The translations under genes were made by a program, and so were the position numbers. Positions 4,691 to 42,700 of a DNA stretch of 64,000 nt are shown piece by piece. The stretch spans positions 7,865-71,864 of the IMG/VR virus record IMGVR_UViG_3300005466_000027, one strand, 5' to 3'. The notes below the pieces were generated by a model. It saw only the letters and a list, made by a program, of their open reading frames with translations. It was not told the DNA's origin and did no database searches. Within the stretch, counting starts at the first letter, position 1, and every line of letters begins with the position of its first letter. This DNA comes from a virus.

Positions 4691-4693
4691 CTT

Positions 4694-4975
4694 ATGAAAT
4701 CCCTCCCTCTCTTCGCCCTGCTCTTCTGCTCCTGCGTCACCACCAATAAACCTGCCGCGCATTTTGCCGTCACAGCTCCAACCCGTACCAGCGTTACGCG
4801 GGCTGCCGAGGCAGCGCATGAGGCACAAGTGGCGAGTGAGCGCAGTAGCGTTCACATTCGGGAATCCCAAGCAGCGAGTGAGCGGAGCAGTGCCCACATC
4901 AAGGTGTTCAAGTCGGACGCAGAGCGGATCGACTACAAAGCCAGCCGCGCTCTCCGAATCTTGGACCATCCATGA
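4694..4975 (+). CDS. putative lipoprotein (spanin-like candidate)
   Basis: MKSLPLFALLFCSC lipobox-like signal; internal repeat QVASERSSVHI/QAASERSSAHI. Confidence 0.55.
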   Translation: MKSLPLFALLFCSCVTTNKPAAHFAVTAPTRTSVTRAAEAAHEAQVASERSSVHIRESQAASERSSAHIKVFKSDAERIDYKASRALRILDHP

Positions 4976-14375: not shown

Positions 14376-14623
14376 AAGAAAGTCTCTCCAGAAGAAATAA
14401 CATCCTCAATTTTATAAGCGCCGTTGGGGTAATGTTTGATGCCGTGTTTTGTGCACAAGGTCACCCACCCACAGGGATTTGCTGGGTAAACGTAATCGGT
14501 GGGTTCGCCGCAAAATTCGTGGTACGCCAGCCCATTCCGAACTTGCATAACCAAGACTTCACACGTAGGGGAAATGGGTTGACTCAGCCAGTTTTTTGAT
14601 TTGTAGGGAAGAGGAGGAATCAT
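14372..14623 (-). CDS. 83-aa Cys/His protein between the two polymerase halves
   Basis: ATGA overlap at both ends; HEFC...C...LCTKH; visibly more AT-rich. Confidence 0.6.
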   Translation of the reverse strand: MIPPLPYKSKNWLSQPISPTCEVLVMQVRNGLAYHEFCGEPTDYVYPANPCGWVTLCTKHGIKHYPNGAYKIEDVISSGETFL

Positions 14624-15801: not shown

Positions 15802-15812
15802 GTATGCGGGAA

Positions 15813-16097
15813 TCAGCGGGAGTAATCCCGTTTCTCGTCGAGCAGAAGACGCATGTAGCAATCTGGGCAAACATGCCCAAGGGTAGGTCTGTTACCTACC
15901 GCGAACCACACTGCGGTGTTCTGGCATCCTGGTGTCAGACATGGATAACGTGTGTCCTTATTCGCTGCCACCACCTCACTCCTCGGCAGCGAAGGGACGC
16001 AGGTGCAAGGCTGCCCCGCTTCCACGTCCCGCGCACAGAAGTGGCAAGGACGGGATTTGGGACGCGGATCGCGGTCGATGTAGTAGGCGTGGTCCAC
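15813..16097 (-). CDS. Cys-rich hypothetical protein
   Basis: CHFC, CTC, C...C, CPDC. Confidence 0.5.
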   Translation of the reverse strand: MDHAYYIDRDPRPKSRPCHFCARDVEAGQPCTCVPSLPRSEVVAANKDTRYPCLTPGCQNTAVWFAVGNRPTLGHVCPDCYMRLLLDEKRDYSR

Positions 16098-16100
16098 GGC

Positions 16101-16703
16101 CTAGTAATCGTCAGTGCTGGTGGGTGCCTTGCCGCGATTGGAGCGGCGGCTGGTGGTGGATGCTTCATCACCATCCCCGCTGATGGCGTCGAACTCGTCT
16201 TCGACGTTGACCTTACCCGCGCCAAAGCTCTCGCCATCTTTGAGGAACTGGACAGCACGCAGTTCCGCGTTGACGCGCTTGCCCCACTTATTGTTCTGCA
16301 CCCAGAGGCGGATGGTGGCGTTGACGTAGCACCCGGCGTAGACTTTGCCGTCTTCCTCGGTAATCGGATTCAGGTCGTGATCGACGACCGCGGGACGGGT
16401 TTTGCGGCTGGCCGGAATGAAGAACTTCCCGTCGCCATAGCCTTCCAGCTCCAGCTTTTCGTTGCCGCCACGGAGACAGCGTTTGAAGCTGATTTTCTTC
16501 TTGAACTCGTCGAGAGCGAGCCGGTCAATCATGGCGTCGATGTGGTCGAGGAGTTTGCCGTGCTCCTCGGTGTCGAGAAGGAAGGTCGCGGAGAACTTCG
16601 GTTCCTGGCCTTCCTCCATGGCGTGAGGCTTGAACAGGTGAGGGAAGGACAGCCGAACATTCGGCAGTTTGATGATGGCGGGATCGGTGGCTTTGGTGGT
16701 CAT
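16101..16703 (-). CDS. DUF2815 family single-stranded DNA-binding protein
   Basis: VRLSFPHLFKP, KFSATFLL, VYAGCYVNA, LRAVQFLKDGESFG, acidic tail. Confidence 0.92.
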   Translation of the reverse strand: MTTKATDPAIIKLPNVRLSFPHLFKPHAMEEGQEPKFSATFLLDTEEHGKLLDHIDAMIDRLALDEFKKKISFKRCLRGGNEKLELEGYGDGKFFIPASRKTRPAVVDHDLNPITEEDGKVYAGCYVNATIRLWVQNNKWGKRVNAELRAVQFLKDGESFGAGKVNVEDEFDAISGDGDEASTTSRRSNRGKAPTSTDDY

Positions 16704-16817
16704 GTTGGTTTTGGTTGCGCCTAGCGTCGGGATCACATCCCGCCTTTCGGCATTTTCTTGCCAGCGCGGAGGCGCTGACGGTTTTGTTGAAGGACAGCGT
16801 GAATCGCTGGCCCAGAT

Positions 16818-20052: not shown

Positions 20053-20084
20053 TCTTGCTGAAAATAACAAGAACTATTTTCAAC
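20053..20084 (-). promoter_or_regulatory. leftward promoter-like element, copy 2
   Basis: 27/32 identical to 13142-13173. Confidence 0.5.
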
Positions 20085-22732
20085 TAACCGCAAATTAATT
20101 CCATGCAAAGATTTTTCAGTCCTTTCTTGACACGCTCACCAGCCACGTCACCGACCGTGCTTTCGTCCACACCGCTGCGGCACCAGAGGTAGTGACGGTC
20201 CTGGCCGAAGGAATATCGTCCCACTTGGCGAAATCCCTCTTCGCGCAGGACGTGGGCCAGTTGTTGAGCGGTGACACGGGAGAGGTTCTCTTCGATGTGC
20301 AGCACATCCAAAATTGCCTTGGCGGAAACGATGTCGTACTGGATCAGCGGATAATCGCCTTCCAGGAGCAAGCGGCGCACCGCGGCAGCTACGTCGCTGG
20401 CGGAATCGTTGATGAGGTCTTGAACGTATTTCGTCCGCGGAGCGTGGCCATCGGCGGCGAAGGAGTCGGAGATGTTCCAGTCAGCGAAATAGCTGCGCAG
20501 GGCTCCAGGCTGTTCACGAAGCAGTTTGTAGAGCGGGGGAAAATAATTCTCACCGAGAGCCTGCACTTGGGCTTTGCTCTGCAATGGGCTCTTTACTACG
20601 AAGTAGCGCCGGTCGCCGGGTTGAAGGGCCAGAGCGTCGTGGTGGTTTGAAAAGAGAAGGTAATTGCTGATGTTGCGCACCTCGCGCGTGTCCCGAAATT
20701 TCTGGTTGACACTCACAAAATCATTGGTGATGAGCGGCTTCAAGGCATTCATCACCTCGTACTTGTTCGTCCCGGCTACACGGACTTCCTCCAGCACCAC
20801 AACCTGATGGCCGAAGCTCCATTCATTGTATCCGCTTTTGATCGAGTCGCCGGAAATAATCTTGACGTGTTCGCCGCCTAATATGGCCTTCGCCGCCTCT
20901 GCCAAGTAGGTTTTCCCAGCCCCCTCGACGGATTGGATGAGAATGGCCCAACGGATTTTTCTTCCAGGGGTCTGAACAAGGCTCGCGAAGTAATCGACGA
21001 TGGTTCGGCGGTAGTCAGGTTCCGCGATAAGATTTCGCAGATGACCTTGAAAGATTTCCCCCGCTGCATGGGCGTGCTCCGGGGTAAGATCGGGGTAAGT
21101 AGGGCAATAAGTGTTGACATACTTTCGCCCGCCACTGACGAAAAACACTTCAGTTGGCTGGGATGGATCGTAGGCGTAGTCATAGACCGTGGGAATCTTC
21201 AGGTGGTTGAGCGCGTAATCCGAAGGCGAGACGATAGGTTGAGAAAGGGATTTGGGGGAAACAGGTATACCGGCATTGCGCAAATCTTCTTCCTGGGGCA
21301 AGAGCCAGCGACCGTAAGCAGCGTTGAAAGCTTCCGCCTTGTAGCGCTCTCCCGTGCGGTGCCGGTAGTAGTCCTGCACGGTCGTCACGTAACACACGCC
21401 ACGCGCCCAGAGGGGTTCGCGTTTGCTGGTCGATTCCTGCTGCTCCTGCGTGCGAATCTGCTGCCGGTAATTGGTGATGGCCTTGCGAACGGACGTGGGG
21501 GACATCGGATACGCGAAGCGCTTCTTCACGTTGGTGACGATGTGGTTGATGAGGATGTCTTCCTGCGTCGCGGAGAGGAGGGGAGCAGCGATGATCTTGC
21601 GCGGACCTTCCTCGGTCAAAGCGCTCACCGTGTCCACTTCTTCGATCCACCGGATGAGAGCGGAAAAAGTGGTTTCCTTGACCTTCTTTGCATCCCACCC
21701 AGCAATCTCCGCGGCGCGCAGGAGGGACCGCACGGTGACGGGCAACCGGCCTACCGGCGTGGGCCGCAGGCTCTCCCAGATTTTCCGGGTTTCCTTTTCA
21801 CCTCCATACTTTTGCCCGGTGGCGCTCCACTCGTCGAAGAGAGCCAATGCCTCATCTTCCATCGTGTGGCCGAATTGATGCTTCAGCGCGGCAGCGCAGT
21901 TGAGCCACTCGGGGCGGCTGCAATCACTGTCGATGGCTTCCAGGGCTTCCTTGGCCGTGGCGAAGGTGATTTCCGGCAACGGTGCGCGGAGGAACTCCAA
22001 GGCGTCGATGCTGGCGGCTTCCGTTGAACGGGGTGTATGTGAGTTGGCGCCGTTTTTGTCAACCGTATCTTCCTCAGTGGCGTCGGCATCACCGAGTTCA
22101 TCCCGGCCCAAATCCCGGCCTTCAGCGAAGGTGAGCAACGGATGGTCTTCGTCCGTTGAATCCGAAAACATCACCGGCAAATACATCGGCTGCACCGCCA
22201 CCATGCTCTCACGTGTCACCGAGGGCAACCCCAGCATATCCGCCACCGTCTGTACTGCCTTGGGGTAGTCGGCTACTGGGATGCGGTGCGCTCCCACCAC
22301 GATCCGCATTCGGGGCTTGGCGTGCGTGTGGGACGCCGTGAGGTAGGCAGCGAAGTTGAGCCCGTGGAGAGCCGTGTGCAGGATACGTGGGTCTTTGAAA
22401 AAGGGTGCCGCGGGGTAGCGCCCTGTCTCGACCCACTTGCCGTCGCGCTGTTCTTTCTCCGGGTCGATGTCGAGAAAGATTAGGTTGCAGTGCGTCGCCT
22501 CGGTGTAGACACGCTTGGAAGGCGAAGCCCGGAAGCAGGCAGGCACGAAGTAGGGCACCTGCTTGATTTCATCCCGTCGCTTTTGATCCAAGGCGATAAA
22601 GTCGGCGTGTCGAATCGCAAGCGTGGGGCACACCCGGAACTTTTCCACGACTTCGCGGAAGGTGGTTGCCGTGCTGGCGCTGACTTGACCGGAGACAGAT
22701 TGACCCTGGAAATAGCGGGGAGAAGTGGACAT
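20084..22732 (-). CDS. primase-helicase (primase, PriCT-2, SF3/D5-like NTPase, C-terminal winged-helix-like domain)
   Basis: IFLDID, TASH...RMRIV, W....ALKH...FDEWS...KY, VEGAGKT, VLEEV, FSNH..AL...DRRY. Confidence 0.92.
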   Translation of the reverse strand: MSTSPRYFQGQSVSGQVSASTATTFREVVEKFRVCPTLAIRHADFIALDQKRRDEIKQVPYFVPACFRASPSKRVYTEATHCNLIFLDIDPEKEQRDGKWVETGRYPAAPFFKDPRILHTALHGLNFAAYLTASHTHAKPRMRIVVGAHRIPVADYPKAVQTVADMLGLPSVTRESMVAVQPMYLPVMFSDSTDEDHPLLTFAEGRDLGRDELGDADATEEDTVDKNGANSHTPRSTEAASIDALEFLRAPLPEITFATAKEALEAIDSDCSRPEWLNCAAALKHQFGHTMEDEALALFDEWSATGQKYGGEKETRKIWESLRPTPVGRLPVTVRSLLRAAEIAGWDAKKVKETTFSALIRWIEEVDTVSALTEEGPRKIIAAPLLSATQEDILINHIVTNVKKRFAYPMSPTSVRKAITNYRQQIRTQEQQESTSKREPLWARGVCYVTTVQDYYRHRTGERYKAEAFNAAYGRWLLPQEEDLRNAGIPVSPKSLSQPIVSPSDYALNHLKIPTVYDYAYDPSQPTEVFFVSGGRKYVNTYCPTYPDLTPEHAHAAGEIFQGHLRNLIAEPDYRRTIVDYFASLVQTPGRKIRWAILIQSVEGAGKTYLAEAAKAILGGEHVKIISGDSIKSGYNEWSFGHQVVVLEEVRVAGTNKYEVMNALKPLITNDFVSVNQKFRDTREVRNISNYLLFSNHHDALALQPGDRRYFVVKSPLQSKAQVQALGENYFPPLYKLLREQPGALRSYFADWNISDSFAADGHAPRTKYVQDLINDSASDVAAAVRRLLLEGDYPLIQYDIVSAKAILDVLHIEENLSRVTAQQLAHVLREEGFRQVGRYSFGQDRHYLWCRSGVDESTVGDVAGERVKKGLKNLCMELICG

Positions 22733-22741
22733 GCTGGAAAG

Positions 22742-22990
22742 TTAAGCGACCCCCAGATGACTCGGTTCCATGACACGGTGAACGGTCATGCCTTCGAACG
22801 TGCGGATACCTTTCAACGCTGCATCTGTCGGTCCAGAAGCAAACCGTAAATACTGCTCAGCATAAGCCGTGAGTGCCTTGTCCTCTTCTTCCCCCAAGTA
22901 CAGTGCTGTTGGTCGCACCAGGCCGTTCGCCATCGCGCGGTCAACGGCCACACGGATGCACTTCGAAATGGTGTCTGGGGTGACGTTCAA
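22742..22990 (-). CDS. hypothetical protein (start uncertain, TTG)
   Basis: PTALYLG...TFEGMTVHRV; coupled to upstream stop. Confidence 0.5.
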   Translation of the reverse strand: MNVTPDTISKCIRVAVDRAMANGLVRPTALYLGEEEDKALTAYAEQYLRFASGPTDAALKGIRTFEGMTVHRVMEPSHLGVA

Positions 22991-23205
22991 AAGTCCTCCA
23001 TGGTTAGGGGCTTCGGCTTCAATTCCGCTGCGATTGCTTCCCGGATTGCACCACGGATGGACGAGGCAAAATATGCACGAGTTCCGATTCTGATGTGCCA
23101 AGTCTGGGTAGCATCATCCGCGGCAATATGGATTGACTCGAACGAATCATCCTCCAGCGCTCCGGCCATCTCCACCAATCCCTTCATCAGTTCTTCATCG
23201 GTCAT
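22987..23205 (-). CDS. hypothetical protein ending PLTMEDF
   Basis: ATG 2 nt after upstream stop. Confidence 0.6.
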   Translation of the reverse strand: MTDEELMKGLVEMAGALEDDSFESIHIAADDATQTWHIRIGTRAYFASSIRGAIREAIAAELKPKPLTMEDF

Positions 23206-23207
23206 CG

Positions 23208-23402
23208 TTAAAAGTCCTCCAGCGTGTAGACTTTGTTCCTGCGGGCCGACTCCACTGCCGCCAGGCATCGCTTGGCCTGTTGATACCCTTGGCAGCGGAA
23301 CTCGCTGATGATGCCGTTGATGCTCGGGAGAGGATAACGGTCGGCCAAGGCCGAGATGATCTGGGGTTCGGTGATGCACCGATACTTGGGATGCTGGATC
23401 AT
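23208..23402 (-). CDS. hypothetical protein ending VYTLEDF
   Basis: ATGA overlap with upstream gene. Confidence 0.6.
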   Translation of the reverse strand: MIQHPKYRCITEPQIISALADRYPLPSINGIISEFRCQGYQQAKRCLAAVESARRNKVYTLEDF

Positions 23403-23683
23403 TTGGTGCGAGTAATCTCCGTGTAGTTCTTGAGTTTCCACACACACTCTCCGACGTAGGCATCGTTCAGACGCATAACGGTGGAGTAGCAGTTGTGGTA
23501 GTGTGAGCGGGGAAAAGTGATTGTGCTACGCGGCCCCATATCGTGGATGCAGCGGCGGATCGGACCCCATCTCGACGGCTGCAACTTGTCCTTGGGCTTC
23601 GCGTGTTTTTTGAACAGTCTTCGAAGAGAGTGCAGTTCTTCTGTGATTACGGCGATTCGGCTTTTGATCTGAAGCGGGGTCAT
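23399..23683 (-). CDS. basic hypothetical protein, possible DNA-binding
   Basis: ATGA overlaps both sides. Confidence 0.55.
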   Translation of the reverse strand: MTPLQIKSRIAVITEELHSLRRLFKKHAKPKDKLQPSRWGPIRRCIHDMGPRSTITFPRSHYHNCYSTVMRLNDAYVGECVWKLKNYTEITRTK

Positions 23684-27631: not shown

Positions 27632-28483
27632 TTACGCGAGGACAGGGGCAAGGCGCTCCACTTCGGCCCAGGTGATGCGATGGCAGCCTGCCACGATCCC
27701 GTGTTCGTTAATCGCGTCCAACTGGTAAGGCCCGACTGGGCAGGTTTCCCCGTTGCGATGCCAGTTTTTGTGAGTGCGGGCGAAGCGATAGGCCTCGCGA
27801 GCGTCATGGAGCGGTACGCGAGCGCCGAGAGTAGAGACAAGCTCCTCGCCCTCCACACGGAAGGCTGTGGGGAAAAGACGGGGGTTGAAATACTCCCCTG
27901 TTTCCCCGCGGAGCCATGCGGCGTAGCCTGCCTCTTGCTCCAATCGGGCAGCAAGCTCCCGTTTCGCTTCAGCCTTGGCGCGTGCCGCTTCAGCGCGTTG
28001 CGTGGCCAGCTTCAATCGCTCGATTGTCTTTTCGTCCACTTTGCGGCGCAGGCCGAAAAACTCGTTTACCTTGGCCGCGGACTCCAGCCACTTCGATTGT
28101 TCGGCGCGGTATTGGTCCTTGTTGCGCGCTTTCTCGATTTTCGCGGCGAAGTAGGCAGCCCGCTTGACGGCATAGTCGAAAAGCTCTTTCCCGCCGATGT
28201 CGGAAAGGGAACTGCCCATATTGATTCCCCCGATGTGGAACACGGTCATACCGCTGACCGCTTGACGCAGCTGCCCTTGATGCTTACTCGTCGTCACGCT
28301 GTAGCTGGTGTCGTTGATGACGACGGCAGCTTTGCCTTTGTGTTCAATGTGGCGGGCGATGGCCGTGCCATAGGAAAGAAAGGCGTCGCCGTTGAAGGAC
28401 ATGGCCGATGGGGCTTCGCCACGGGGCGCGCCCTTGTGGGCCCAGACATGTGCGATTTCATTAGAGGTAAATTTCGTTTTCAT
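27632..28483 (-). CDS. early hypothetical protein
   Basis: 283 aa with own promoter; SYGTAIA, YSVTTSKHQ, TLGARVP, AGCHRI. Confidence 0.75.
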   Translation of the reverse strand: MKTKFTSNEIAHVWAHKGAPRGEAPSAMSFNGDAFLSYGTAIARHIEHKGKAAVVINDTSYSVTTSKHQGQLRQAVSGMTVFHIGGINMGSSLSDIGGKELFDYAVKRAAYFAAKIEKARNKDQYRAEQSKWLESAAKVNEFFGLRRKVDEKTIERLKLATQRAEAARAKAEAKRELAARLEQEAGYAAWLRGETGEYFNPRLFPTAFRVEGEELVSTLGARVPLHDAREAYRFARTHKNWHRNGETCPVGPYQLDAINEHGIVAGCHRITWAEVERLAPVLA

Positions 28484-28536
28484 TTTAGTAGGTGATGCGG
28501 AGTTGCCTTGCGGCAGGTTTTAATTGTTGAGGCTGC

Positions 28537-28565
28537 AGGTTAATTCAGTTTGTTGGAAACGTCAA
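28537..28565 (-). promoter_or_regulatory. early sigma70-like promoter
   Basis: TTGACG-17bp-TAACCT on minus strand. Confidence 0.65.
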
Positions 28566-28572
28566 GAGGAGA

Positions 28573-28785
28573 TTACAGATTTTTTTTGTTCGGTTGGGCG
28601 CGTGGTGGGTGGATCGTGACAAGCACCATGTGTTTGTGGATACCGTCGCGTTTAATCAAGGCAACGGTTGCCGGATGGCAGTAGCCGAGCGTCGCATATT
28701 TGCCTGTCGCTTTGAGCTTGGCGCGGATTTCGGTTTGCCCGTCTGTGGTGATGAAGCGCAAAGCTTCCTTAGGTTTGGTAATCAT
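28573..28785 (-). CDS. hypothetical protein
   Basis: ATG directly after ACCACGCGCC motif. Confidence 0.5.
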   Translation of the reverse strand: MITKPKEALRFITTDGQTEIRAKLKATGKYATLGYCHPATVALIKRDGIHKHMVLVTIHPPRAQPNKKNL

Positions 28786-28795
28786 GGCGCGTGGT

Positions 28796-29029
28796 CTACC
28801 GTTCAATCAGTGCGGCGCACTCCAGAGCGTGAAAGACGCACTCACCAAATTCGTGTGCAGCCTCTTGCCAAGACAGCCCGCCGCGGATTTGCGCGCCATA
28901 TTGGACGGCGAAAGAGCGTTTGCCTGACTGGTGGATCGAAACGGGGTGTTGACCGGGAATTTCGTGTGTGGTGATGAGGGTCGATTTCGTTTTCATGTGA
29001 TGCGGGATGAGGGTCGATTTCGTTTTCAT
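28796..29029 (-). CDS. hypothetical protein with duplicated N-terminus
   Basis: MKTKSTLIPHH-MKTKSTLI; FAVQYG.Q....L...AA.EFG.C..HAL.C. Confidence 0.6.
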   Translation of the reverse strand: MKTKSTLIPHHMKTKSTLITTHEIPGQHPVSIHQSGKRSFAVQYGAQIRGGLSWQEAAHEFGECVFHALECAALIER

Positions 29030-29038
29030 GTGATGCGG
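28973..29038. repeat. perfect 33-bp tandem duplication
   Basis: GATGAGGGTCGATTTCGTTTTCATGTGATGCGG x2. Confidence 0.95.
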
Positions 29039-29059
29039 AAAGAGTTGAGAGGCAGGGTT

Positions 29060-29554
29060 TCAGACCAATCCCAAGAGCACAGTGCCGTCAGCCGCATATA
29101 CTGTCACGTTGCCGTGATCGTTGACTGTTTTGTAATCCGCACTTTGGTCCCTATCGGGGTTTTCGTAGTGCTCCAGTTCGTCGATTTCGTCATGGGATGG
29201 CCAGTAGCCGATGTCTGCGCCGTCTCCCGGATGTGCTCCGAAATAACAGTAGGGCGGGGCAAAGGTGCCCAGAGCATCGGGCAAAGCCTCGTTGACCAGT
29301 TCTTGTGCGATGTCTTCTTTATCTGGGTCGATTTCGCTGCCATCGGGGGAGAAGCAATCCTGTGCTTCCCCGATGAGGGAATTGAGGTTGTCACGTTGGG
29401 CGAAGTTTTCCGGGAGGGAAAAGTAATTGCCGTTGCGGTTGACCTGCCATTCCAGTTCGGAGAGGAAAGTCGGAAGCAAGTCTTCTGTGCGAAGGGTGGC
29501 AGCGGAGATGCTGCCAAGTGATGCGGGTTTGATCGTGATGGATTGAGGAGTCAT
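29060..29554 (-). CDS. acidic early hypothetical protein
   Basis: SISAATLRTEDL...APPYCYFGAHPGDGADIGYW...VNDHGNVT. Confidence 0.7.
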   Translation of the reverse strand: MTPQSITIKPASLGSISAATLRTEDLLPTFLSELEWQVNRNGNYFSLPENFAQRDNLNSLIGEAQDCFSPDGSEIDPDKEDIAQELVNEALPDALGTFAPPYCYFGAHPGDGADIGYWPSHDEIDELEHYENPDRDQSADYKTVNDHGNVTVYAADGTVLLGLV

Positions 29555-29662
29555 AGTGTGATGCGGAGTTTTAAGGTTTGTGGGTCAGAGCGGCTGTTTT
29601 TCTTAGCGCTCACTACCGCCCCCGCGTTACGGGGGCGATGTGTGAATGCCTTTAAGCGAAGG

Positions 29663-29881
29663 CTAGTTGGCAGCGTCAGCCAAATTAAACGCTGTCCACT
29701 TGTCCACGCTGGGGAGAGCACTGCGGGGAACTCGTACGACTGTCCCATCCGCTTTAGTAATCCATGCAAAACGCACGGACCAGCGAACCATTTTCGCGCC
29801 GCCGAGAGAGGCGCAAATAAGCGGGAACGCGAGAACGGCATGTTCCGGGGCTGTGTATTGTCCGTAAGAGGTAGTGGTCAT
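29663..29881 (-). CDS. hypothetical protein
   Basis: First ORF after promoter at 29922-29950. Confidence 0.5.
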   Translation of the reverse strand: MTTTSYGQYTAPEHAVLAFPLICASLGGAKMVRWSVRFAWITKADGTVVRVPRSALPSVDKWTAFNLADAAN

Positions 29882-29921
29882 AATGTGATGTGGATTTTAA
29901 GGTTTTCTGGTCTACGCAAGG

Positions 29922-29960
29922 AAGTTACTCCCACTTGTTGCATTCGTCAAGAGAAGATTT
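29922..29960 (-). promoter_or_regulatory. early promoter, repeat copy 1
   Basis: TTGACG-17bp-TAACTT; 30 bp identical to 31250-31279. Confidence 0.7.
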
Positions 29961-30727
29961 CAAAAATTCCATTGCTCTGCCATGGCGAGCGCAATTCCTG
30001 AGTAGGTGACAGCCCGCACGGAAGCGCGGTCGTCGGAAGGAGAAAGTCGGTTCTGCCCGCTGTCGGTTTGGTTGGACCAGCGTGGGCGGATTAATCCTGG
30101 TTCGCCTCCACACGCGAGGCAGCCTTTAGAGAACATATAGCGCGCTGTCTCTCCAGTTCCGGTTGTTCCACATGGGCACACTGCACGGGGCGGGTAGTGT
30201 TTAGCCGGATCAATCTTGAGCGGGGGCAGCCCTTTGAGCCAAAGACACGTGGCCTTGCTGGCATCTTCCCCAAACTGGTATGGCTGGATAATTTGACGAC
30301 CGGGCAGCTTGTTTGGCAGCGCCGGATGGGTGTTCATGTGCCCGATGGGGTTTTCGATGCAGATACGGGGCACTGGGGCTGCCCACAGCGCCAGGAAAAA
30401 CTCCACTGCTTTCTCCCGTGCCTCCCGGCGTGCCTGTCCGGTCAATGTGCCCGGTTTCACTTTCTGGTGATACCCTACGCCGGGATACTTGGTGTAGTCA
30501 GGATCGCGAAAAGCCCATGCCGCACAAGTGGCCAAGTAGTCACAAGGGGGATGAGCAATCAGTAAATCCCAGTTGTCCCATCTGATGGCTCGCAACACAT
30601 CGCAGCGGTAATGGTATTCCGATTTGTCCGCAGAGGGGAGCAGGTCACAACTCCACGCGTCGTGTCCCTTGGCACGGAAAGCACGGCGCACTACCCCACT
30701 GCACTCGCAAGCTATGAGCACTTTCAC
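29960..30727 (-). CDS. phage C5 DNA cytosine methyltransferase-like protein
   Basis: VLIACECSG, WSCDL, DLLIAHPPC, IENP, QPYQFG...K.TCLW, R.VTY.GIA.AMAEQW. Confidence 0.85.
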   Translation of the reverse strand: MKVLIACECSGVVRRAFRAKGHDAWSCDLLPSADKSEYHYRCDVLRAIRWDNWDLLIAHPPCDYLATCAAWAFRDPDYTKYPGVGYHQKVKPGTLTGQARREAREKAVEFFLALWAAPVPRICIENPIGHMNTHPALPNKLPGRQIIQPYQFGEDASKATCLWLKGLPPLKIDPAKHYPPRAVCPCGTTGTGETARYMFSKGCLACGGEPGLIRPRWSNQTDSGQNRLSPSDDRASVRAVTYSGIALAMAEQWNF

Positions 30728-30966
30728 AGTTCAATTTCCTTTCCAGCATTATCCCATGCGCGGCCATTGTAGGAAATCGTGGCAACGGTTTTTCCCGTGG
30801 TCAGGTCAACCACGGTCACTTTGGGGGACTCGCGACCACCTAGACACTGTTCGTCGCGTAGCTGGCACCACGCGTCAGAGGCTTCGCGGATCGAAGCAAC
30901 GGCCACAACATGGCGTTTCGAGCCAAAGCGGACGGCGTATTGAGGGGATGGGGAAAGCGTGTTCAT
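30724..30966 (-). CDS. hypothetical protein
   Basis: ATISYNGRAW motif; GTGA overlap. Confidence 0.6.
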   Translation of the reverse strand: MNTLSPSPQYAVRFGSKRHVVAVASIREASDAWCQLRDEQCLGGRESPKVTVVDLTTGKTVATISYNGRAWDNAGKEIEL

Positions 30967-30975
30967 GGTGCGTGA

Positions 30976-31233
30976 TTAATCCAAGTTCCACGTTTTTAGT
31001 TCCAGCACTTCACGAACGAGGCACCCGTTTTCCATGTGGCGGGCGTGCATACGCTTTTCGTGCTGCTCTTTGGCGGAAGCGTTGGCGTAGGATTGTTTTG
31101 GCTCGATTGCCGGGAGCATCTCTTCGGGGAGTGCTTTTGCCTTTTCCACGGCTGCGTTGAAATCGGTTACACCACGAATCCAGACAGTTTTTGTCCGTGT
31201 GTCCCACAGTTTGCAGATGACGATGAAATTCAT
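30976..31233 (-). CDS. hypothetical protein
   Basis: Near-leaderless after promoter copy 2. Confidence 0.55.
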   Translation of the reverse strand: MNFIVICKLWDTRTKTVWIRGVTDFNAAVEKAKALPEEMLPAIEPKQSYANASAKEQHEKRMHARHMENGCLVREVLELKTWNLD

Positions 31234-31241
31234 ATGGGGTG

Positions 31242-31279
31242 AGCATACTCCACTTGTTGCATTCGTCAAGAGAAGATTT
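31242..31279 (-). promoter_or_regulatory. early promoter, repeat copy 2
   Basis: TTGACG-16bp-TATGCT. Confidence 0.7.
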
Positions 31280-31296
31280 TCCCTTTTTCCGTGGGG

Positions 31297-31872
31297 TCAG
31301 GTAAATGCCGGATCATCCATCAATGCGTTTTTCGCTTTTGCAGCGTGCTTTAACTCCACGGGGTCGGAGAGCTTATCCAATTTGAGTTTGTAACGGATTT
31401 GCTGGCCAGCGGCATAAACCTCTAATCGGGATACACCCAGCCTTGCTGCAATACGACGGGCTGGCCAGCGCTGAATTTTGTAGGAGAGAACCGCGCGCTC
31501 CAATGGGGTCATAAAGGTTTCTCGGGCTGCCTCTGGAACAGGTTGACCGGATTCGACCAATATGTCAGTTCCCAGATTCGAGAGATTATTCCCCACACGC
31601 TCCCTCATTCGAGCCACAATTGCGGCTGTCGGTTGTGGAGGTAGGCATGTCCAGAGATTGCAGCGAAGCCCCTCAACGCTGTGTAGGCCGATGGGACGCA
31701 TGCCTAAAGCCCGCAGAGACTTGGCCAAGCCTTGAGCAGTTATTAGGGCACCATCTTTTTCCAGGAATCGTAAAAGTGTTACGGCGTCGAGTATATCATA
31801 CTGAACGAGAGGGGTTTCTGCTGCTAAACGGTGTTCTTGGATTGCGCCGCGAATGGATAATTCTGAATGCAT
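31297..31872 (-). CDS. primase C-terminal-domain paralog fused to LuxR/sigma4-like HTH
   Basis: PLVQYDI...ITAQGLA..LR..G..P.G......R.NLW aligns with primase C-terminus; MTPLERAVL...RIAARLGVS...V......IRYKL. Confidence 0.75.
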   Translation of the reverse strand: MHSELSIRGAIQEHRLAAETPLVQYDILDAVTLLRFLEKDGALITAQGLAKSLRALGMRPIGLHSVEGLRCNLWTCLPPQPTAAIVARMRERVGNNLSNLGTDILVESGQPVPEAARETFMTPLERAVLSYKIQRWPARRIAARLGVSRLEVYAAGQQIRYKLKLDKLSDPVELKHAAKAKNALMDDPAFT

Positions 31873-32166
31873 ATGCCCAGTGCCTATACCACCTTTTCCT
31901 TATCGCACAAGGACAGATGTAGAGATTATTAAAAAAACGTATAATAGTATAAAGGGAATAGAGTAAGGGGAAATCGCATCTAGGAGGCAGGAGAGACTTT
32001 TTAAAGAAAAATATGGACAGCAGGGATTCAGTGCAGCGGGGCTGCTCCGATTTCGGGTTTTGAGCGTTTGCACGGCTAGCGCTGGATCAGTGGGCGCAGC
32101 CCCATGGTGCTTTGGAGTGTGAGGGCCACACTTGACTATACTTTTCAGGTATGCTCGAATGCCCAC

Positions 32167-32370
32167 ATGCCAAAGGCTAAGCCTCTTCCTGATGATCCTG
32201 TAGCGCGTGAAAAGGTGTTGCGGGCTCGCCGGTCAGCCGTGGAGCGGGTAAATAAGTGGAGAAAGCGCCACCCGGAAGCAGCTCGAATTTACACCTATGC
32301 GGCTCAAATGCGTTTCCTGGCATCCAAAAAAGCGAAAGCCCGTTTGCAGGCATTAAATTTGTTAGCTTAA
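32167..32370 (+). CDS. small basic hypothetical protein
   Basis: K/R-rich helix, KWRKRHPE. Confidence 0.45.
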   Translation: MPKAKPLPDDPVAREKVLRARRSAVERVNKWRKRHPEAARIYTYAAQMRFLASKKAKARLQALNLLA

Positions 32371-32379
32371 GCACTTTTT

Positions 32380-33100
32380 CCGTGGTGTCGCTTTTCCTCT
32401 GTAGGATGGTGCAACGCAAAGACGCTCAGCACGCGTCAAAACGAACTGCCCGCTGTCCCCTACCAGCTCGTCACCTTCAAAACGAATTTCGGGCACCAGG
32501 ATGGCTCGAATTTCGCCCACCCTGTGGAACAGATCGACCAAACACACTTTTGCGCTGTGGAACGAAATCGCGATGCTGTGGAACACTGATAGATACAGGG
32601 TTCTACGTTATTTGACATTCGGGTGTATTTCGTATAGTGCAAATGGTTGTGGTTGAGGGAGTTACGATAACGTTATACTCTCAGTATCATATGAAATGGG
32701 AATGACCCGCCTCTGTGGGATTGCTGAAGGGGTGGTGGGGTGGCACCCGGTAGGCGGGGAAACCGACCCCGCGTGATCGCGTAATAGGGGTCTCACGGGA
32801 TTTTCCTAAAATTTGACTTTTTCTAGTAATTATAATTCAGCCCGAACCACCTATTTCCGACACCACGAATTACCCGCACGCCGACGCACCCGCACGCCGA
32901 CATCAGCTATTTCCCGCGCACCCGCACACCAAAATAACTCCTCCCCCCCCGATCCACCAATCATCCAACCACCCTCACACCGGCCACACGAATTTCTTGA
33001 CGTGCCCCGTCGAACCTGATACACGCGCCAGCGCATGCTGAGAACCCAATCCCGAGTCTACTTCATCGCCCTGCTCACGCTGGAATATCTGCGCGGCTAA
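32380..33100. other. non-coding divergence region (candidate origin or genome terminus)
   Basis: No credible ORFs; CTGTGGAAC x3, ACCCGCACGCCGAC x2, AT-rich patches, G-rich to C-rich switch. Confidence 0.5.
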
Positions 33101-33110
33101 AAGATTTGTA

Positions 33111-33139
33111 TTGACGGAAACGTCAAAGAGGAGTAGTTG
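33111..33139 (+). promoter_or_regulatory. rightward promoter with palindromic -35
   Basis: TTGACG-gaaa-CGTCAA; 17 bp to TAGTTG; ATG 8 nt later. Confidence 0.6.
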
Positions 33140-33147
33140 TCGCAGAT

Positions 33148-33525
33148 ATGGCGAACAACTACACATCAGATGGTAAATTCATTATCGACGCTTCCGGCAA
33201 GCAGTGGCCGGTTGATGTGGCGCATTTAATGCCACTTCCAAACGGGCTCCAATTCCATACCATTGCCGGTGGTGGGTATTCACTGCTTTTCGCTGGACCT
33301 GATGGCGAATGGAGTTGCGAGCAGTACGACACTGACACCCACTGGCTAGCCCGCGCACCCCTGCCGCCCGTGCCGAAGCCGAAGACTCAGGCGGAGTTGG
33401 ATGAAGAGGCATACCACGCCTACATGCTTCCAATCGTAAACAAGGCTCACGGGATTCCATACCAATCGGTCTGGAACGCAGCACTCGCCTACGAGCGCAA
33501 CCGCACCGCTGCTACGCCACAATGA
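33148..33525 (+). CDS. hypothetical protein
   Basis: First ORF of rightward arm. Confidence 0.6.
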   Translation: MANNYTSDGKFIIDASGKQWPVDVAHLMPLPNGLQFHTIAGGGYSLLFAGPDGEWSCEQYDTDTHWLARAPLPPVPKPKTQAELDEEAYHAYMLPIVNKAHGIPYQSVWNAALAYERNRTAATPQ

Positions 33526-33734
33526 AAACCGCGCTCTACATCGAGGATGGTGTCACTCAGATCATCCTCACCCCCGAATCGGATTGGGAAAGAGTAATCC
33601 TGGCCGACGTGGACAAACGCCCAGTAACATTCTTCCGTGGTGAATTCTATTCCTGCAGAGGTGGATGGGATCGCCACGGCAGCGGCACCGAATCACTCAT
33701 CATCCGCATGGCTGAATCGAAGGAGGAACTGTGA
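33522..33734 (+). CDS. hypothetical protein
   Basis: MKTALYIEDGVTQIILTPE..E; CRGGW.R. Confidence 0.6.
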   Translation: MKTALYIEDGVTQIILTPESDWERVILADVDKRPVTFFRGEFYSCRGGWDRHGSGTESLIIRMAESKEEL

Positions 33735-34015
33735 TGAAAACTCCTGACACCTCTTCACCAGCATTTCCCGGACTATACAGCACCCCCGGATATGGTTGCG
33801 CCCGCCGCACCGCCGATGGAGAACTGGAGGAACACACCACCGGCATGACCCTGCGCGACTACTTCGCGGCCAAAGCGCTGCAAGGTATGATGGCAAACAA
33901 CAATGTCGCGTTGGTCGATTGCCTCACTGGCAGCCCCGAAGACATTCAGGCTATTGCCAAGACCGCGTATGCCCTGTCGGACGCGATGCTCGCTCAACGG
34001 GAGAAATTGGGATGA
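33731..34015 (+). CDS. conserved small phage protein
   Basis: PAFP...GMTLRDYFAAKALQG...AY.LSDAML..R. Confidence 0.8.
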   Translation: MMKTPDTSSPAFPGLYSTPGYGCARRTADGELEEHTTGMTLRDYFAAKALQGMMANNNVALVDCLTGSPEDIQAIAKTAYALSDAMLAQREKLG

Positions 34016-34230
34016 ACTGCGATTACTGCGGAACTTTTCACTACGACACCCGCTGCCCGAGCTGCGGAGCGCCTGTCACGCGGTCAGTCACCGCCGATCA
34101 AGTTCAAGGTGACGAGACGATCCGCCAAGACTTCCGCTGGTCATGGTCAGGTGGATTGCCTCAGATCATGGGGCTGAAGGTCGGTGGGTTCTCCATTATG
34201 CCACCATCCACCAAGCTCACGGGCGTATGA
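34012..34230 (+). CDS. 72-aa Zn-ribbon protein carrying a capsid-derived segment
   Basis: CDYC...CPSCG then VQGDETIRQDFRWS; ATGA overlaps both sides. Confidence 0.7.
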   Translation: MNCDYCGTFHYDTRCPSCGAPVTRSVTADQVQGDETIRQDFRWSWSGGLPQIMGLKVGGFSIMPPSTKLTGV

Positions 34231-34469
34231 CCACCTCCACCATCCTCCTCTCCCTCGTCCCGGTTTACCTTCTCGCTGGATGGCTCACCATGGTTTTCGA
34301 CACGGCCATTGGCAGTCACTCCAGCGCGGAACAACGCTTCGCTATTTTTCTGCTGTGGCCGTTCATGCTCGGAGCGCTGTTTCTGGTCTACATCTTTCGC
34401 AATCTGTGGGTGCTACTGGACAACGCGGCCACTCGCCTCGGAAATAAACTGAAGAGGAAAGACCCGTGA
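34227..34469 (+). CDS. two-TM membrane protein
   Basis: Two hydrophobic segments, LLWP motif. Confidence 0.6.
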   Translation: MTTSTILLSLVPVYLLAGWLTMVFDTAIGSHSSAEQRFAIFLLWPFMLGALFLVYIFRNLWVLLDNAATRLGNKLKRKDP

Positions 34470-35014
34470 TCGAGTTCAACCGCATCTTCACCGGAGGCAT
34501 GGAGCTGTGTCCCCCGGTCGTCCCCGGACTGGCCTTCGTGCATGCCTGCAAAACGTGTCACCGGCAGCTCTGCGGCCAACCCCGCCCTGCTGACCCGGAC
34601 TACCTTTACCGTGAGCACAACGGAGAGCTTTTCCTGAACTTGATCGACCCAGACAAGCCTCTTTTCAGCCTCCCTCTTTTCGAGCATGCCCTCGACTGGA
34701 TGACCCAACGCCACCGCAACGGCGAGGATGTAGTCATCCACTGTGACCAGGGCAACAGCCGCAGCCGGTCCCTCGCGTTGCTCCTCTGCGCCCGCCTCGG
34801 GTTCGTCACCGCGGACTCGCTCCAGCTCGCTGCATTCGAGTTCGCCAACAAAACAGGCTACGCTTTCACACCCGGTCGAGGCATCACGATCTTCATGGAG
34901 CAGAATTGGGAAGCGCTTATGGGCAGGGAAACCCCGAGAGAACGCTCGCAGCGGGAAGCAATAGATGCGCTAGTAAGGAGATTTGGTCCGCGTCTTCTCG
35001 CTGCCGGAGAATAG
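34466..35014 (+). CDS. dual-specificity/tyrosine phosphatase-like protein
   Basis: VVIHCDQGNSRS (CX5R) with upstream LNLID. Confidence 0.8.
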   Translation: MIEFNRIFTGGMELCPPVVPGLAFVHACKTCHRQLCGQPRPADPDYLYREHNGELFLNLIDPDKPLFSLPLFEHALDWMTQRHRNGEDVVIHCDQGNSRSRSLALLLCARLGFVTADSLQLAAFEFANKTGYAFTPGRGITIFMEQNWEALMGRETPRERSQREAIDALVRRFGPRLLAAGE

Positions 35015-35120
35015 TTTTTATGACCACACCCGTTCCCCTGCTCATCTCCGCCAAGACTATGAACACACATTACGAACTCATCGGCCTCACCGCCTTCGAC
35101 ACCCAGAAAGGGAAACGGGA

Positions 35121-35354
35121 GTGAGCACCTCTCGATACATTCGCAACTGCATCCGATGGTTCTTTCTTTGCATCTTCCACCCGCTGAAGACACGTCACGA
35201 ATTGGACCAATACAATTTCTGGTTCCAGCAGACACAGGATGCCTTTGACCGGGCCAAGGCTGCGAAAACACAGAAAGAATTTCTCTTGGCCAAGTCACAG
35301 TTCCAGCTTGCCGAACGCCGCTACTGGAAGCACTCCAAATACATCTGCCCATGA
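35121..35354 (+). CDS. hypothetical protein (GTG start uncertain)
   Basis: ATGA-coupled to next gene. Confidence 0.45.
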   Translation: MSTSRYIRNCIRWFFLCIFHPLKTRHELDQYNFWFQQTQDAFDRAKAAKTQKEFLLAKSQFQLAERRYWKHSKYICP

Positions 35355-35650
35355 CCACAGAAACTTGCAAAAACTGCTGGTGGTGGAGCAGACCGGACGC
35401 GGAAGCAACCCTCGGCCAGTGCCGATGCCATGCGCCTTCCACTGTCGAGACAGACTGCAACGCCGCTTTTTCAGGCAGAGCACAGCAAACGCTATGGCCG
35501 GTGACGGAGGCGATTGACTGGTGCGGGGACTTCCGGCACAACGTGAGCTGCGATGCACCGAGCCTCCAGGCATGGAAAGATGCACAGATTGACCAAACCT
35601 ATCAGTTTCTCAGTGACTTCGTGAAAACCAGAATCGAGTTGGCACCATGA
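35351..35650 (+). CDS. Cys-rich small phage protein
   Basis: CKNCWWW...CRCHAP...WP......WCGDF. Confidence 0.65.
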   Translation: MTTETCKNCWWWSRPDAEATLGQCRCHAPSTVETDCNAAFSGRAQQTLWPVTEAIDWCGDFRHNVSCDAPSLQAWKDAQIDQTYQFLSDFVKTRIELAP

Positions 35651-35838
35651 CCGATCACCTCATCAACATCGCTTGGAAGGCATCCAGAGTTCTCGATCAG
35701 TTGGAGCCACCTAAAGACGGCTGTGGTCCGACCGGAATTATCGGGCCGCGGGGATTTTATCCAGCGGGTGAGTCCTACGAAAAAGACCTTGTTGAGTCTA
35801 TCCAATCCATGCTCACGCGCATCTCCCAGTACCTATGA
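35647..35838 (+). CDS. hypothetical protein
   Basis: ATGA overlaps. Confidence 0.5.
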   Translation: MTDHLINIAWKASRVLDQLEPPKDGCGPTGIIGPRGFYPAGESYEKDLVESIQSMLTRISQYL

Positions 35839-36236
35839 AACTCCCCCTTATCTTCATCCTCCTGCTCCTCGCCACCACGCTACACGCCGACGACTGGTCA
35901 TCCGCTATGCTCGCTCGTCTCGATGCCGAGCAGCGGACTAGCGAAATCGCCTTTGCCAAGTCCGACTTCAAGGCACTCCTGCAGAGCCAGCGCAGGCTCA
36001 ACGTCATCCGTCGCCAGGCTAGCAACCACCGACAGATCGACACTCTCGCACCCGTCCAGCAAAACGCCTACTACAAGCGGCTGGAGTCACGCGACGAATA
36101 CGCTATCAAGTGGCTGGCCATCGCCCTCTACGCTCTCGAAGCGGCGTCGGCTCAGATCGACCGTGAAGAACTCGCGGCGATACAGCGTGAGCAGCTTTAC
36201 CTGCTGCGGGACATCGATAACCTGATTGCACGATGA
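35835..36236 (+). CDS. secreted helical protein
   Basis: Signal peptide MKLPLIFILLLLATTLHA. Confidence 0.6.
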   Translation: MKLPLIFILLLLATTLHADDWSSAMLARLDAEQRTSEIAFAKSDFKALLQSQRRLNVIRRQASNHRQIDTLAPVQQNAYYKRLESRDEYAIKWLAIALYALEAASAQIDREELAAIQREQLYLLRDIDNLIAR

Positions 36237-39760: not shown

Positions 39761-42700
39761 ATGGCCTACGACCTCACCGATTTTGAACCGGAGCAGGCGT
39801 CTCCGGTCGCGGTCAAGTCGCCCATCTCGAAATCCCGTCAAGACCTGAGTGATTTCGAGCCGGTGGAGACACCCGCTGAACCGACCGCGGCTGAACCCGC
39901 GGAGCAGGCTGCGCAGGCGACAGTTCCTCCTGTGCAACCCGCCATCACCAACGACCCTTTCGCCGCGTTCAATGCCAAGCTGGAAAATTCTCCCGTGGCC
40001 AGGATGCCGGAGGTGAACTTGCCCGCGCAGTCCGCTGTCCCGGATGTCACTCGCCCCATTCAGCCGGTGCCGCAGGTAACGCCGGAAGACACGCTGCCGG
40101 TGGCCAAGGACGTGCCCAGCCGGGGCGTGTTTGTCAACGAGACGCCGACGCTCATCAGCAATATCCGCGAAGGTAAATTCGAAGACGCGGCGGCACTGGC
40201 CAAGGAAAACGCGATGGGTTCCAAACCGATGCGATTCCTCTTCGGGCCCACCGAAGCTCAGAGGATCGCGGAGGCGGTTCCCGTGACCAAGGAGGATGGC
40301 ATCACCAGCTACGAGTACAAACCGGCCAGCACGGATGCTGTGGAGAAGCTGGGTGCGGTCGGGGCGGCACGTCGTTCCATCGCGTCCCTGGAGCGCGGCA
40401 TCCCGGTGACGGAGTTGGATCAGAAGGTGGAAAGCGAGATGATGAAGGACGACCCCAGCGACAGCACGTTGAAGTCCATCGGCAAGGGGCTCTATAATGC
40501 GGTCCTCAGAACGACCGTGAGCCTTTCCGATCCGACGATGGCTCTTATCCCGGAATCGAAGCTGGTCAGCGGTGCGTTTACGCTCGATATGGCCAACAGC
40601 GCCAAGGAACAAATTCAGAAAGGGCTGGAAGCGGACAACCCTCGGGAAGCGGTCGAAGGATTGCTCGGGGGCGTCATCACCTTGGGCATGGCTGGGGTGT
40701 CGGGGAGCCATACGCTCAAGCCGACCAAGGCCGACATCATCGAGCACATGGACAAGGTGCCGGATGAACTGTTGCACGAAGCCAACAAAGAACTGAAGTC
40801 CAGCGACCCGGATGTGGCCAGCGCGGCGGGGGCCGAGTTGATGAAACGGGCTGCCGACTTTGGTCAAGAGTTGGACGCCACGCTCAAGCGATTGCCTGGC
40901 GATGTGCAGGAGAAGGTCAATGGTATTCTGCAGAAACAGCTCCGGGGTGAAGAACTAACCAACAACGAGCGTGCCACGCTGTTGCAGGTGCGGTCCTACG
41001 CTTCGCGGCTGCAGCAGGATAAGACCAACGACGAATTTACTTCTGGAACGCCAGCACGAACAGCGCCGACGCAGCAAGTAGCGCCAGCAGAACCAGTAGG
41101 AACTGGGGGGCAGTCAGTGAGTCCACGTAATGAACCTGCGCCTGTTGTAGACGCGAGTCAACAAGGCGGCAGTGTAGCGGCGTCTGCCAAGGCTAAAGCG
41201 GAGGCAGCGACACAACCGCTGCGGGAAGTCGCAGCAGCCGTCCAAGAGACATTACCGCTCGCCGCTCAAGCAGCCAAGGAACAGGCGGATTTGCTGGCCA
41301 AACGGGCGCAGGAGCAGGCTGCGGCTGCAGAATCAACTTCACCGCCGCCCGCCGTCGAACCTCCGGCATCGGGCCAACAGGAACCGCCACTCTCCGGGGA
41401 AGAAAGGCCCCCGGCTGCCACGGTCGCTCCTGTCATGGAAGGGGCGGCGGCGAAGCCTGTCACACAGGGCACCAAGATCGTAGGCCCGGTCCTGCAGGTC
41501 GATGGTAAAACCTATGCCGAGGGCAAAATTGGGCAGCATCACAAAGACATCGTAGCTGAGGCGATTGACAACTATTTCAAGGCTAACCCGGATGCCGAGG
41601 AAGTGCCACGGTTCGATCACCGATTCAAGGACGACCAAGGCAACATCCACGACCGGGAGAGCGGCTGGGAGCTGGCCAAGAGTGCCAACCAGATTCCACC
41701 GGAAACGGCGAACGCAGTTGAAGCGCTGGCAAGCTCCAGTGGTGACAGACCGCAGCTTCACGCCGATCACTTGGTTGAAGGAGAATCCAGCTTGACGGAA
41801 ACAGCAAACAATGGAGAAGCTGCTGGAATGACCAAAAAACCTTTTGAGGTAGATGAATCTCTTGTGATGAACTCACCACACACTGGAGATGACACGATTG
41901 TGAATTTTCGAGGAGTCCAAGGAGATAATGCAGTGGTGTGGACCGGGAGAAGTCAGATGATGGTGCCTCTGGAGTGGCTTCGCCGTGAAGGCGAGCCCCT
42001 TCAGAAAAAAGAAACCCCTTCTTCACAGGCTCAACTACCTGCTGACGCCCCACATCCATCTACATCTGAGGGCAAAACGGAAGTAGCCGAGAAGGATTTT
42101 CCTAAAACAAAAGCAGACATCATTGAGGAACTTCTCGGTCCAGAGCCAAGCTACTTTGAAGGACAGATGAAGCAGAAAGAATCCGCCAAACAATACGCTA
42201 AATTTTCCAAACAGGAACTGGCTGAGAGACTACAAAATAAGAGGGATTTTGAGAAAAAAAGTAAGGAATTAAGTCAGCGGATGATGTCCGTCGCTCCAGA
42301 GGTTTCTGCGCGCTTGGACGCTGCGGGAGGTAAATGGCGTGCAGAGGCCAACCAGATCGCAGAAGAACATGGTTTTGGTGAACGGTGGAGAGGGATGACC
42401 GACAACTCACGGGGGGAGGAAGCTGCTCGTCTTTCCAGTTTTTTGGCCGATTACGGATTTGATAAGCTGAAAAAGGAGCCTCCTGATGAACCTGTATCTT
42501 CGAAAGAGCCGATTACCGTGGAACGACCAGTGGTTGCACCGAATGAGCCTGTGGAGCGGCCACCGGCTGCGGATGCCGCTGCGACCGAGGCTTCCGTGGC
42601 GAAAGGCTCCCTTCTCGATAAATTAGAGTCCCTGCTGACCGAAGAGGAGCCGCCCGCCGCCGCGAAGGAAGCTCCGCAATCCCCCGCACAGAAGCGGGTG

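Follow-up and report, generated by a model that had tools for sequence, protein, structure and literature searches.

We propose that P0001, the 191-residue product of a minus-strand gene at positions 31297-31872 (stop codon included), is an early regulator that binds specific DNA sequences in the central control region between the two divergent arms of its phage and is possibly docked on the replisome by its C-terminal tail; we assign this reading a probability of about one half. The gene was analysed within a window of 64,000 nucleotides (bases 7865-71864) of a 71,864-bp IMG/VR virus record that carries direct terminal repeats and is rated complete, and all positions given here are those of the window. 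The regulatory part of the proposal rests on the fold and sequence of a C-terminal HTH domain, the basic character of both folded domains, the position of the gene at the head of its operon and a conserved AT-rich block upstream of it. It also draws on the fast turnover of the regulator and on HTH-plus-tail proteins with varied N-terminal parts, as in modular transcription factors. The docking part is suggested by a plain form of the tail, which ends 5 of the 726 ORFs in the window and changes in concert genome by genome, and by the tails of T7, which dock on the polymerase.

Domain architecture of P0001 and its paralogy with the primase-helicase

The AF2 model of P0001 (six sequences; pLDDT 80.5) contains two folded domains, a flexible linker and a disordered end. 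Residues 1-97 (31582-31872, minus strand, like every part of the gene) form a winged helix, residues 98-117 (31522-31581) the linker, with pLDDT below 50 for residues 101-117, and residues 118-184 (31321-31521) a four-helix HTH domain of the GerE/LuxR type. The protein closes with a conserved acidic-aromatic tail (residues 183-191, ALMDDPAFT; 31300-31326), which the model places on neither domain and whose residues 188-191 are disordered (pLDDT <50). Homologues begin at the same residue as P0001, and both folded parts are basic, with an average net charge of +3.7 for the N-domain and +6.5 for the HTH part despite the acidic tail. This combination of winged helix and HTH was absent from the family libraries searched (Pfam, PHROGs and NCBIfam), and NCBIfam held nothing above its cut-offs for the P0001 family. 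A protein atlas gave no usable match by features; its weak structural neighbours (TM 0.38-0.50), primase-helicase clusters among them, are leads only.

Sequence comparison revealed that the N-domain is a copy of the C-terminal domain (CTD) of the phage's own primase-helicase, in agreement with the original prediction. Residues 3-105 of P0001 aligned with residues 777-880 of the primase-helicase in a single BLASTP comparison, with 34 of 105 positions identical (32%; E = 9e-11). The paralogous winged helix lies at 20093-20404 on the minus strand, within the coding sequence at 20084-22732, and encloses the stretch of about 20130-20360 that the prediction had named. That coding sequence specifies 882 residues with Pfam matches to PriCT_2 (E = 1.5e-14) and DUF5906 (E = 5.4e-15), and its helicase part resembles a solved structure named 'Primase' (6k9c, E = 1.9e-12). 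A profile built from 19 members of the family, run on 59 IMG/VR primase loci, matched the last ~100 residues of the primase ORF in 24 of them (E = 6e-15 to 7.5e-4), and a six-member profile run against 1.84 billion representatives found one 874-residue primase (P0032, residues 777-873, E = 8.6e-6). Because the family profiles also find primase C-termini, the match between the two proteins is not due to chance and the paralogy is real.

Folded alone (22 sequences; pLDDT 88.6, pTM 0.79), the N-domain adopts a winged-helix fold extended by one more helix at its C-terminus (helices at residues 4-17, 30-39, 46-55 and 82-94; strands at 27-29, 59-66 and 69-75). Seven of its nine best rows in BFVD were proteins named helicase, primase, primase-polymerase or VapE, matched at their ends, and the other two were unnamed. 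The best match (E = 9.8e-5, TMq 0.66, rmsd 2.9 over 96 columns) was A0A0N6WGA9, a 144-residue 'Helicase' of Salmonella phage 37; an 803-residue Prim_Pol protein (TMq 0.69, rmsd 2.2, 90 columns) and the primase-polymerase of Burkholderia phage AH2 (TMq 0.66) were also recovered. Judged from these models, the fold is specifically the winged helix that ends phage PrimPol-helicases, which bears out the originally predicted domain assignment at the structural level. A0A0N6WGA9 is a protein of a cultured phage; it is too short to include a LuxR-type domain as well, and its size suggests that this phage, too, may have the primase end domain as a separate protein.

Solved structures related to the N-domain were generic winged helices (best Foldseek E = 0.018, PadR-type; best VIA Z 6.8), and its top structural neighbours include the protein-binding winged helices of ESCRT-II, cullin, kleisin and Stn1 and the RPA2 winged helix. 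No solved P4 alpha or SaPI Rep CTD was among the listed PDB fold matches, the primase CTD sequence retrieved nothing from solved chains at E ≤ 10, and no Pfam model for a primase-helicase C-terminal winged helix was matched. By sequence and fold, the N-domain resembles the CTDs of PrimPol/SF3 enzymes (D5-like, NrS-1-like, SaPI PriRep and P4 alpha-type); unlike them, it is free-standing, basic, faster evolving and fused to an HTH.

The charge of the two kinds of domain is opposite. Primase CTDs are acidic to neutral (mean net charge -1.9; pI 5.2-7.1 in 16 of 16 sequences), whereas free-standing copies are basic (mean +3.7; pI >8.5 in 18 of 20). The primase CTD is as conserved as the enzyme that carries it (50-88% identity versus 55-85% for the whole enzyme). 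When 23 regulator domains were placed on a tree with 33 primase CTDs, a single branch (100/100) separated the two kinds, and branches were longer among the regulators.

The C-terminal domain matched GerE/LuxR factors throughout a search of 48,161 solved chains, whose best 20 rows were all of the LuxR/NarL/FixJ type (Z 7.3-10.4). The highest score was that of 3clo (Z 10.4, rmsd 2.7, 68 aligned residues), while QscR (Z 9.7, rmsd 1.6, 63 residues), TraR, NarL and GerE (Z 9.5) all matched at Z 9-10; Foldseek placed GerE 6jqs on the domain with TMt 0.79 and rmsd 2.0. The likeness to these factors, which extends over 61-68 residues at Z 9-10.4 and rmsd 1.6-2.7, is matched at the profile level, where the family recovered the solved chains of StyR (4.9e-4), NarL (5.6e-4), FixJ (3.5e-3) and sigma-H (3.5e-3). 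The Pfam hits on the domain were sub-threshold (HTH_23, E = 0.016; Sigma70_r4_2, E = 0.15), and the NCBIfam NarL equivalog reached only 17.5 bits on the relative P0012, with an ECF sigma model likewise sub-threshold (E = 0.06). The Pfam GerE model PF00196 gave no match at E ≤ 1 on P0001 or in a six-frame search of the genome, so the domain is classed as a divergent GerE/LuxR member by fold and profile, not by a curated cut-off.

P0001 differs from GerE/LuxR factors in that its family falls below the Pfam and NCBIfam cut-offs, its input domain is a primase-derived winged helix in place of a receiver or autoinducer-binding domain, and an acidic-aromatic tail is added. The original prediction had described the HTH as LuxR/sigma4-like; the LuxR half of that description holds, while the sigma-4 half does not, SigF scoring Z 6.5, below the LuxR rows. 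Membership of the sigma-70 family was rejected, since the N-domain is an alpha/beta winged helix, no helical sigma-2 domain is present and the sigma scores are sub-threshold. Positions of the recognition helix, read by eye from the NarL alignment, carry the small or uncharged residues VYAAGQQ, which is unusual for a DNA reader.

Genome setting, control region and turnover of the regulator

Genes lie on the minus strand from 7326 to 31872 and on the plus strand from 33148 onward, and transcription therefore diverges from the central 1.27-kb stretch between them. The 72-kb phage is virulent-looking, with two divergently transcribed arms. The P0001 gene heads the minus-strand run, a leftward replication operon that also encodes a DNA methyltransferase (29960-30727; phrog_757, E = 8e-50), the primase-helicase, an SSB, two exonucleases, one helicase and a family-A DNA polymerase in two ORFs. 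The split polymerase occupies 13542-14375 and 14620-15870 (minus strand), which correspond to phrog_17 positions 667-990 and 1011-1226 and are separated by a gap of ~245 bp. A perfect 33-bp tandem duplication at 28973-29038 repeats the start of a minus-strand ORF (MKTKSTLI...), and the neighbouring gene at 27632-28483 begins with a similar MKTK... stretch. Five large rightward ORFs, including one of 2513 residues (39761-47302, plus strand), gave no PHROG match at E ≤ 1e-4; the group's virion module is uncharted.

The central region (31873-33147) contains no long ORF. The original prediction had placed the P0001 gene beside a non-coding region; the gene does lie at the edge of the central region, but the region is not wholly non-coding, as it holds a 67-residue basic ORF (32167-32370, plus strand) with a syntenic, weakly similar ORF in the relative L003 (1698-1892, minus strand). 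A promoter-like block (TTGACT..., 32134-32162) that is conserved in L003 ends about at the start codon of this ORF, which suggests that its message is leaderless or near-leaderless. No Rfam family was found in 31000-34000 at E ≤ 1.

An AT-rich block upstream of the P0001 gene (31912-31955, minus strand; GC 28-35%) is conserved in L003 and partly in another relative, L006. It lies 40 nt upstream of the start codon, contains the 16-mer AATCTCTACATCTGTC (31912-31927), which recurs once only and with three mismatches, and includes a weak sigma-70-like pair (TTTATA-17-AATAAT). We predict that this block is probably the promoter and 5′ leader of the P0001 gene; promoter-like matches near the gene are not commoner than in shuffled sequence (2 versus 2.2).

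Two clusters of direct repeats occur further into the region. Three copies of CTGTGGAAC (32522-32584, plus strand), spaced by 33 and 21 bp, are candidate binding sites: three of the four exact copies in the window fall within these 63 bp, against 0.48 expected per window, and they are not conserved in L003. Located ~650 bp from either start codon, they fit an origin as well as an operator. Three C-rich repeats resembling CGCACCCGCACGCCGAC (32869-32935, plus strand) stand beside an AT-rich stretch (32800-32859, GC 32%), and similar G-rich repeats lie upstream of the homologue in L006, although a G-rich pattern search, its pattern being too strict, gave no link between the window and L006. A G-rich block of ~30 nt at 32727-32756 is near-identical in L003. 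In a motif search CCTCCTAG occurred once, and AAACGAAATCG was rejected as a site because it is the coding start of minus-strand genes. The short repeats of the control region differ between relatives, as the regulators do.

Database searches revealed that the P0001 family is rare, with about 14 full-length clusters among 1.84 billion representatives. A word-indexed search gave five family clusters at 90% identity, and the family profile gave 39 matches, of which 14 were full-length (E ≤ 8e-39); the other 25 comprised three N-domain-only proteins, three fragments, one primase and, for the rest, the HTH part only. Three of the full-length members (P0012, P0018 and P0019) are ~290 residues long and carry an added N-terminal segment that looks HTH-like by eye. 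GenBank phage records matched neither the DNA of 28000-36000 nor, by tblastn, P0001, and 185,579 species genomes (one per species) held no member of the regulator family; the sole primase relative there was distant (26%) and came from an alphaproteobacterial MAG. A scan of IMG/VR with six family sequences found none, the same scan with 19 sequences found one genome (3300009174_000006), and a metagenome scan found three loci, two of which were the same phage.

The fusion is scarce among related phages: besides the genome of the window, a full-length member was present, within the DNA fetched, in one of 59 primase-bearing IMG/VR loci, again 3300009174_000006, which indicates that P0001 is not a fixed part of the replication module. 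This 53,170-bp contig (L007/L045) has its primase gene split over both ends and is for that reason taken to be circularly permuted and probably a complete genome. Its gene order, with ~6 kb between regulator and primase, is that of the window. The primases of the two genomes are sisters (85% identical), whereas their regulators are 38% identical and belong to different subclades, and the upstream repeats differ. Compared with the replication enzymes, the regulator changes far more quickly, as regulators that determine specificity do.

A conserved tail shared with other phage proteins

Every member of the P0001 family ends in a conserved acidic-aromatic peptide. In the alignment of 19 sequences, 14 end in ...[DEK]DPAF followed by at least one residue, two in ...DDF or ...EDF and three in ...DPADY or ...NPEDY. 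The plain form is represented within the family by P0016 (...PLTMEDF) and P0013 (...SQDDF), and P0017-P0019 and P0023 end in ...DY; P0023, an N-domain-only relative, has a tail as well. Under a strict T7-type definition, with an aromatic last residue, P0001 itself falls outside the class, as it ends in ...DDPAFT with F next to last. The DPAF tail may resemble the conserved C-terminal peptide of FtsZ.

The plain ending [LMVT][DE][DE][FY] is commoner on window ORFs (5 of 726) than chance would give: 100 shuffles gave a mean of 0.02 and a maximum of 1, and 0.13 were expected from its internal frequency. Its carriers are a T7-type SSB (16101-16736, minus strand; ...TSTDDY; Enc34_ssDNA-bd, E = 8e-39), a VRR-NUC-like endonuclease (12478-12915, minus strand; ...LTLDDF; phrog_93, E = 2e-26), two small genes immediately upstream of the primase gene and an ORF in the right arm. 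The small genes, both on the minus strand, encode 79 residues ending in ...VYTLEDF (23208-23447) and ~72 residues ending in ...PLTMEDF (22987-23205, with the internal ATG placed by eye). The right-arm ORF (50427-51026, plus strand) encodes 199 residues ending in ...VYTLDDF and matches phrog_4151, a 'DNA binding protein' (E = 4e-5). The tail of P0001 is a variant of the peptide on these five ORFs. P0016 shares its last seven residues with the small window protein that ends at 22990, which ties the regulator tail to the plain class.

Among relatives whose primases are 58-62% identical, an ending of the plain type recurs and is uniform within a genome: NLDDY on three proteins in L008, NLDEY, NLDEF or NVDDY on four in L009, NYLDEY on two in L010 and a single case in L012, while L011 lacks it. 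Among the more distant primase loci (L013-L065 without L045), the ending was present on one ORF only, in L023. A receptor common to all these tails would account for their changing together within a genome. In L009 the counterpart of the window's methyltransferase (4265-5155, plus strand) ends in ...TNLDEY, and the window's own enzyme has no tail.

The DPAFx variant occurs only on HTH proteins, of three architectures, whatever the plain tail of the genome. Since it is restricted to HTH proteins and has a residue after the aromatic one, it may have a partner other than that of the SSB-type tails. Two further proteins (L006 13527-14108 and L008 746-1297) combine a LuxR-like HTH and a ...DPAFx tail with different N-terminal parts, so that an HTH-plus-tail module is seen to be shuffled among these phages. 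The ~290-residue P0012, P0018 and P0019 likewise join the HTH and tail to another N-terminal part.

The closest known counterpart is phage T7, in which the acidic, aromatic-ended tails of gp2.5 (SSB) and gp4 (helicase-primase) are reported to dock on the polymerase (PMC5686142, PMC12339929), and a DTDF peptide to mimic the gp4 tail (PMC12339929). The tails described here are likewise disordered and acidic, with an aromatic last or next-to-last residue, and the window phage has a T7/Enc34-type SSB and a family-A polymerase. Unlike in T7, at least five further ORFs are tailed, a nuclease and small proteins included, in addition to the L009 methyltransferase homologue; unlike T7 gp4, the primase-helicase of the window has no tail, and that of P0001 is DDPAF plus one residue.

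Proposed role and alternative readings

Under our proposal, P0001 would be made early, as the first leftward gene from the central control region. Its HTH would bind specific sites in this 1.3-kb region, most likely as a dimer, since GerE-type domains bind DNA as dimers, and the bound protein would set transcription of its own replication operon, of the rightward operon or of both, with the winged helix giving a second nucleic-acid contact. The tail might dock P0001 on a part of the replisome to which the SSB, the endonuclease and the three small proteins would bind through their own tails; alternatively, it might cover the basic surface of P0001 itself until DNA or a partner is present. A complex prediction of P0001 with primase-helicase residues 540-882, run without controls, scored 0.00 in both runs (mark 0.32) and speaks neither for nor against binding.

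A wider version of this proposal, which we advance tentatively and consider rather unlikely, is a clade-wide tail network in which one short acidic-aromatic peptide would address many otherwise unrelated proteins (the SSB, a nuclease, a methyltransferase homologue, the small proteins beside the primase gene and HTH regulators) and P0001 would be the transcription arm, plugged into the replisome so that expression from the control region follows replication, a T4-late logic built from T7-like parts. In T4, the small late-transcription factors gp33 and gp55 are held on the sliding clamp through tails at their C-termini. They serve here as a working analogy only, in that a kind of tail common to transcription and replication proteins would make transcription follow replication; there is no sequence or fold relation, and no clamp was identified in the window phage. 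The replication-transcription coupler offered in the original prediction thus stays open, with the tail as an independent hint.

We consider it unlikely that P0001 is a replication accessory, the initiator, loader or copy-number brake of the original prediction, that binds the central repeats as an origin and recruits or restrains the primase-helicase or polymerase through its winged helix or tail. The descent of the N-domain from the primase-helicase CTD would suit this role, as the CTD winged helices of SaPI Rep proteins are reported to bind origin iterons (PMC9371898). Also consistent with it are direct repeats that are clustered and spaced by helical turns (33 and 21 bp), the C-rich repeats beside an AT-rich stretch, the place of the gene in the replication operon and a kind of tail common to the SSB. 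Against it, the cumulative GC-skew minimum lies near 14-16 kb of the window, not at 32-33 kb, and most related primase loci lack the protein. The C-terminal domain is moreover of the GerE type, and to our knowledge such domains are almost always transcription factors.

The specific form of this idea in the original prediction, an origin-binding mimic of the primase end, is not supported. The two kinds of domain form separate clades and are opposite in charge, and covariation between regulator and primase CTD within genomes was not found in the one genome pair available: the primase CTD of 3300009174_000006 scores 47 bits (39%) against the window regulator and 29 bits (24%) against the regulator of its own genome. 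Origin binding by the primase CTD of this phage is itself an assumption, and a doubtful one because that domain is acidic and conserved, unlike origin-specificity domains such as the SaPI Rep CTDs, which are reported to diverge (PMC9371898).

A role as a protein-protein adaptor, with the winged helix holding a protein ligand, possibly the acidic-aromatic tails, and not DNA, seems to us improbable. P0001 could in that case hold promoter DNA with its HTH and link it to replication proteins that bear tails, or form head-to-tail chains through its own tail. The high conservation and non-basic charge of the primase CTD would suit an adaptor, as would the many protein-binding winged helices among the structural neighbours of the N-domain and the tail on the N-domain-only P0023. 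The free-standing copy has nonetheless turned basic, and the AF2 monomer shows no tail docked on the winged helix.

An immunity repressor of the lysogeny type, in a temperate phage, would likewise be an HTH protein that evolves fast and sits where transcription diverges, but we regard it as very improbable: the complete 71,864-bp record gave no match to a tyrosine integrase (the control search was positive in 14 of 14 genomes), the family is absent from the 185,579 species genomes, and the gene heads the replication operon and does not stand alone. The decoy for host defences that sense the primase-helicase, as originally suggested, has paralogy alone in its favour and is hardly credible for a copy that diverged anciently (~25-39% identity, separate clade), has the opposite charge and is fused to a DNA-binding domain.

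Collectively, we regard P0001 as probably a gene regulator wired to DNA replication, in which the input domain of a transcription factor has been recruited from a replication enzyme. The tails point to a multi-protein docking-tail network in uncultured soil phages of ~45-72 kb. If the tail does not link P0001 to the replisome, the protein still founds an undescribed regulator family and marks a variable control module. If it does, P0001 would be a compact case of replication-coupled transcription outside T4 and would generalise the two-tail system of T7.
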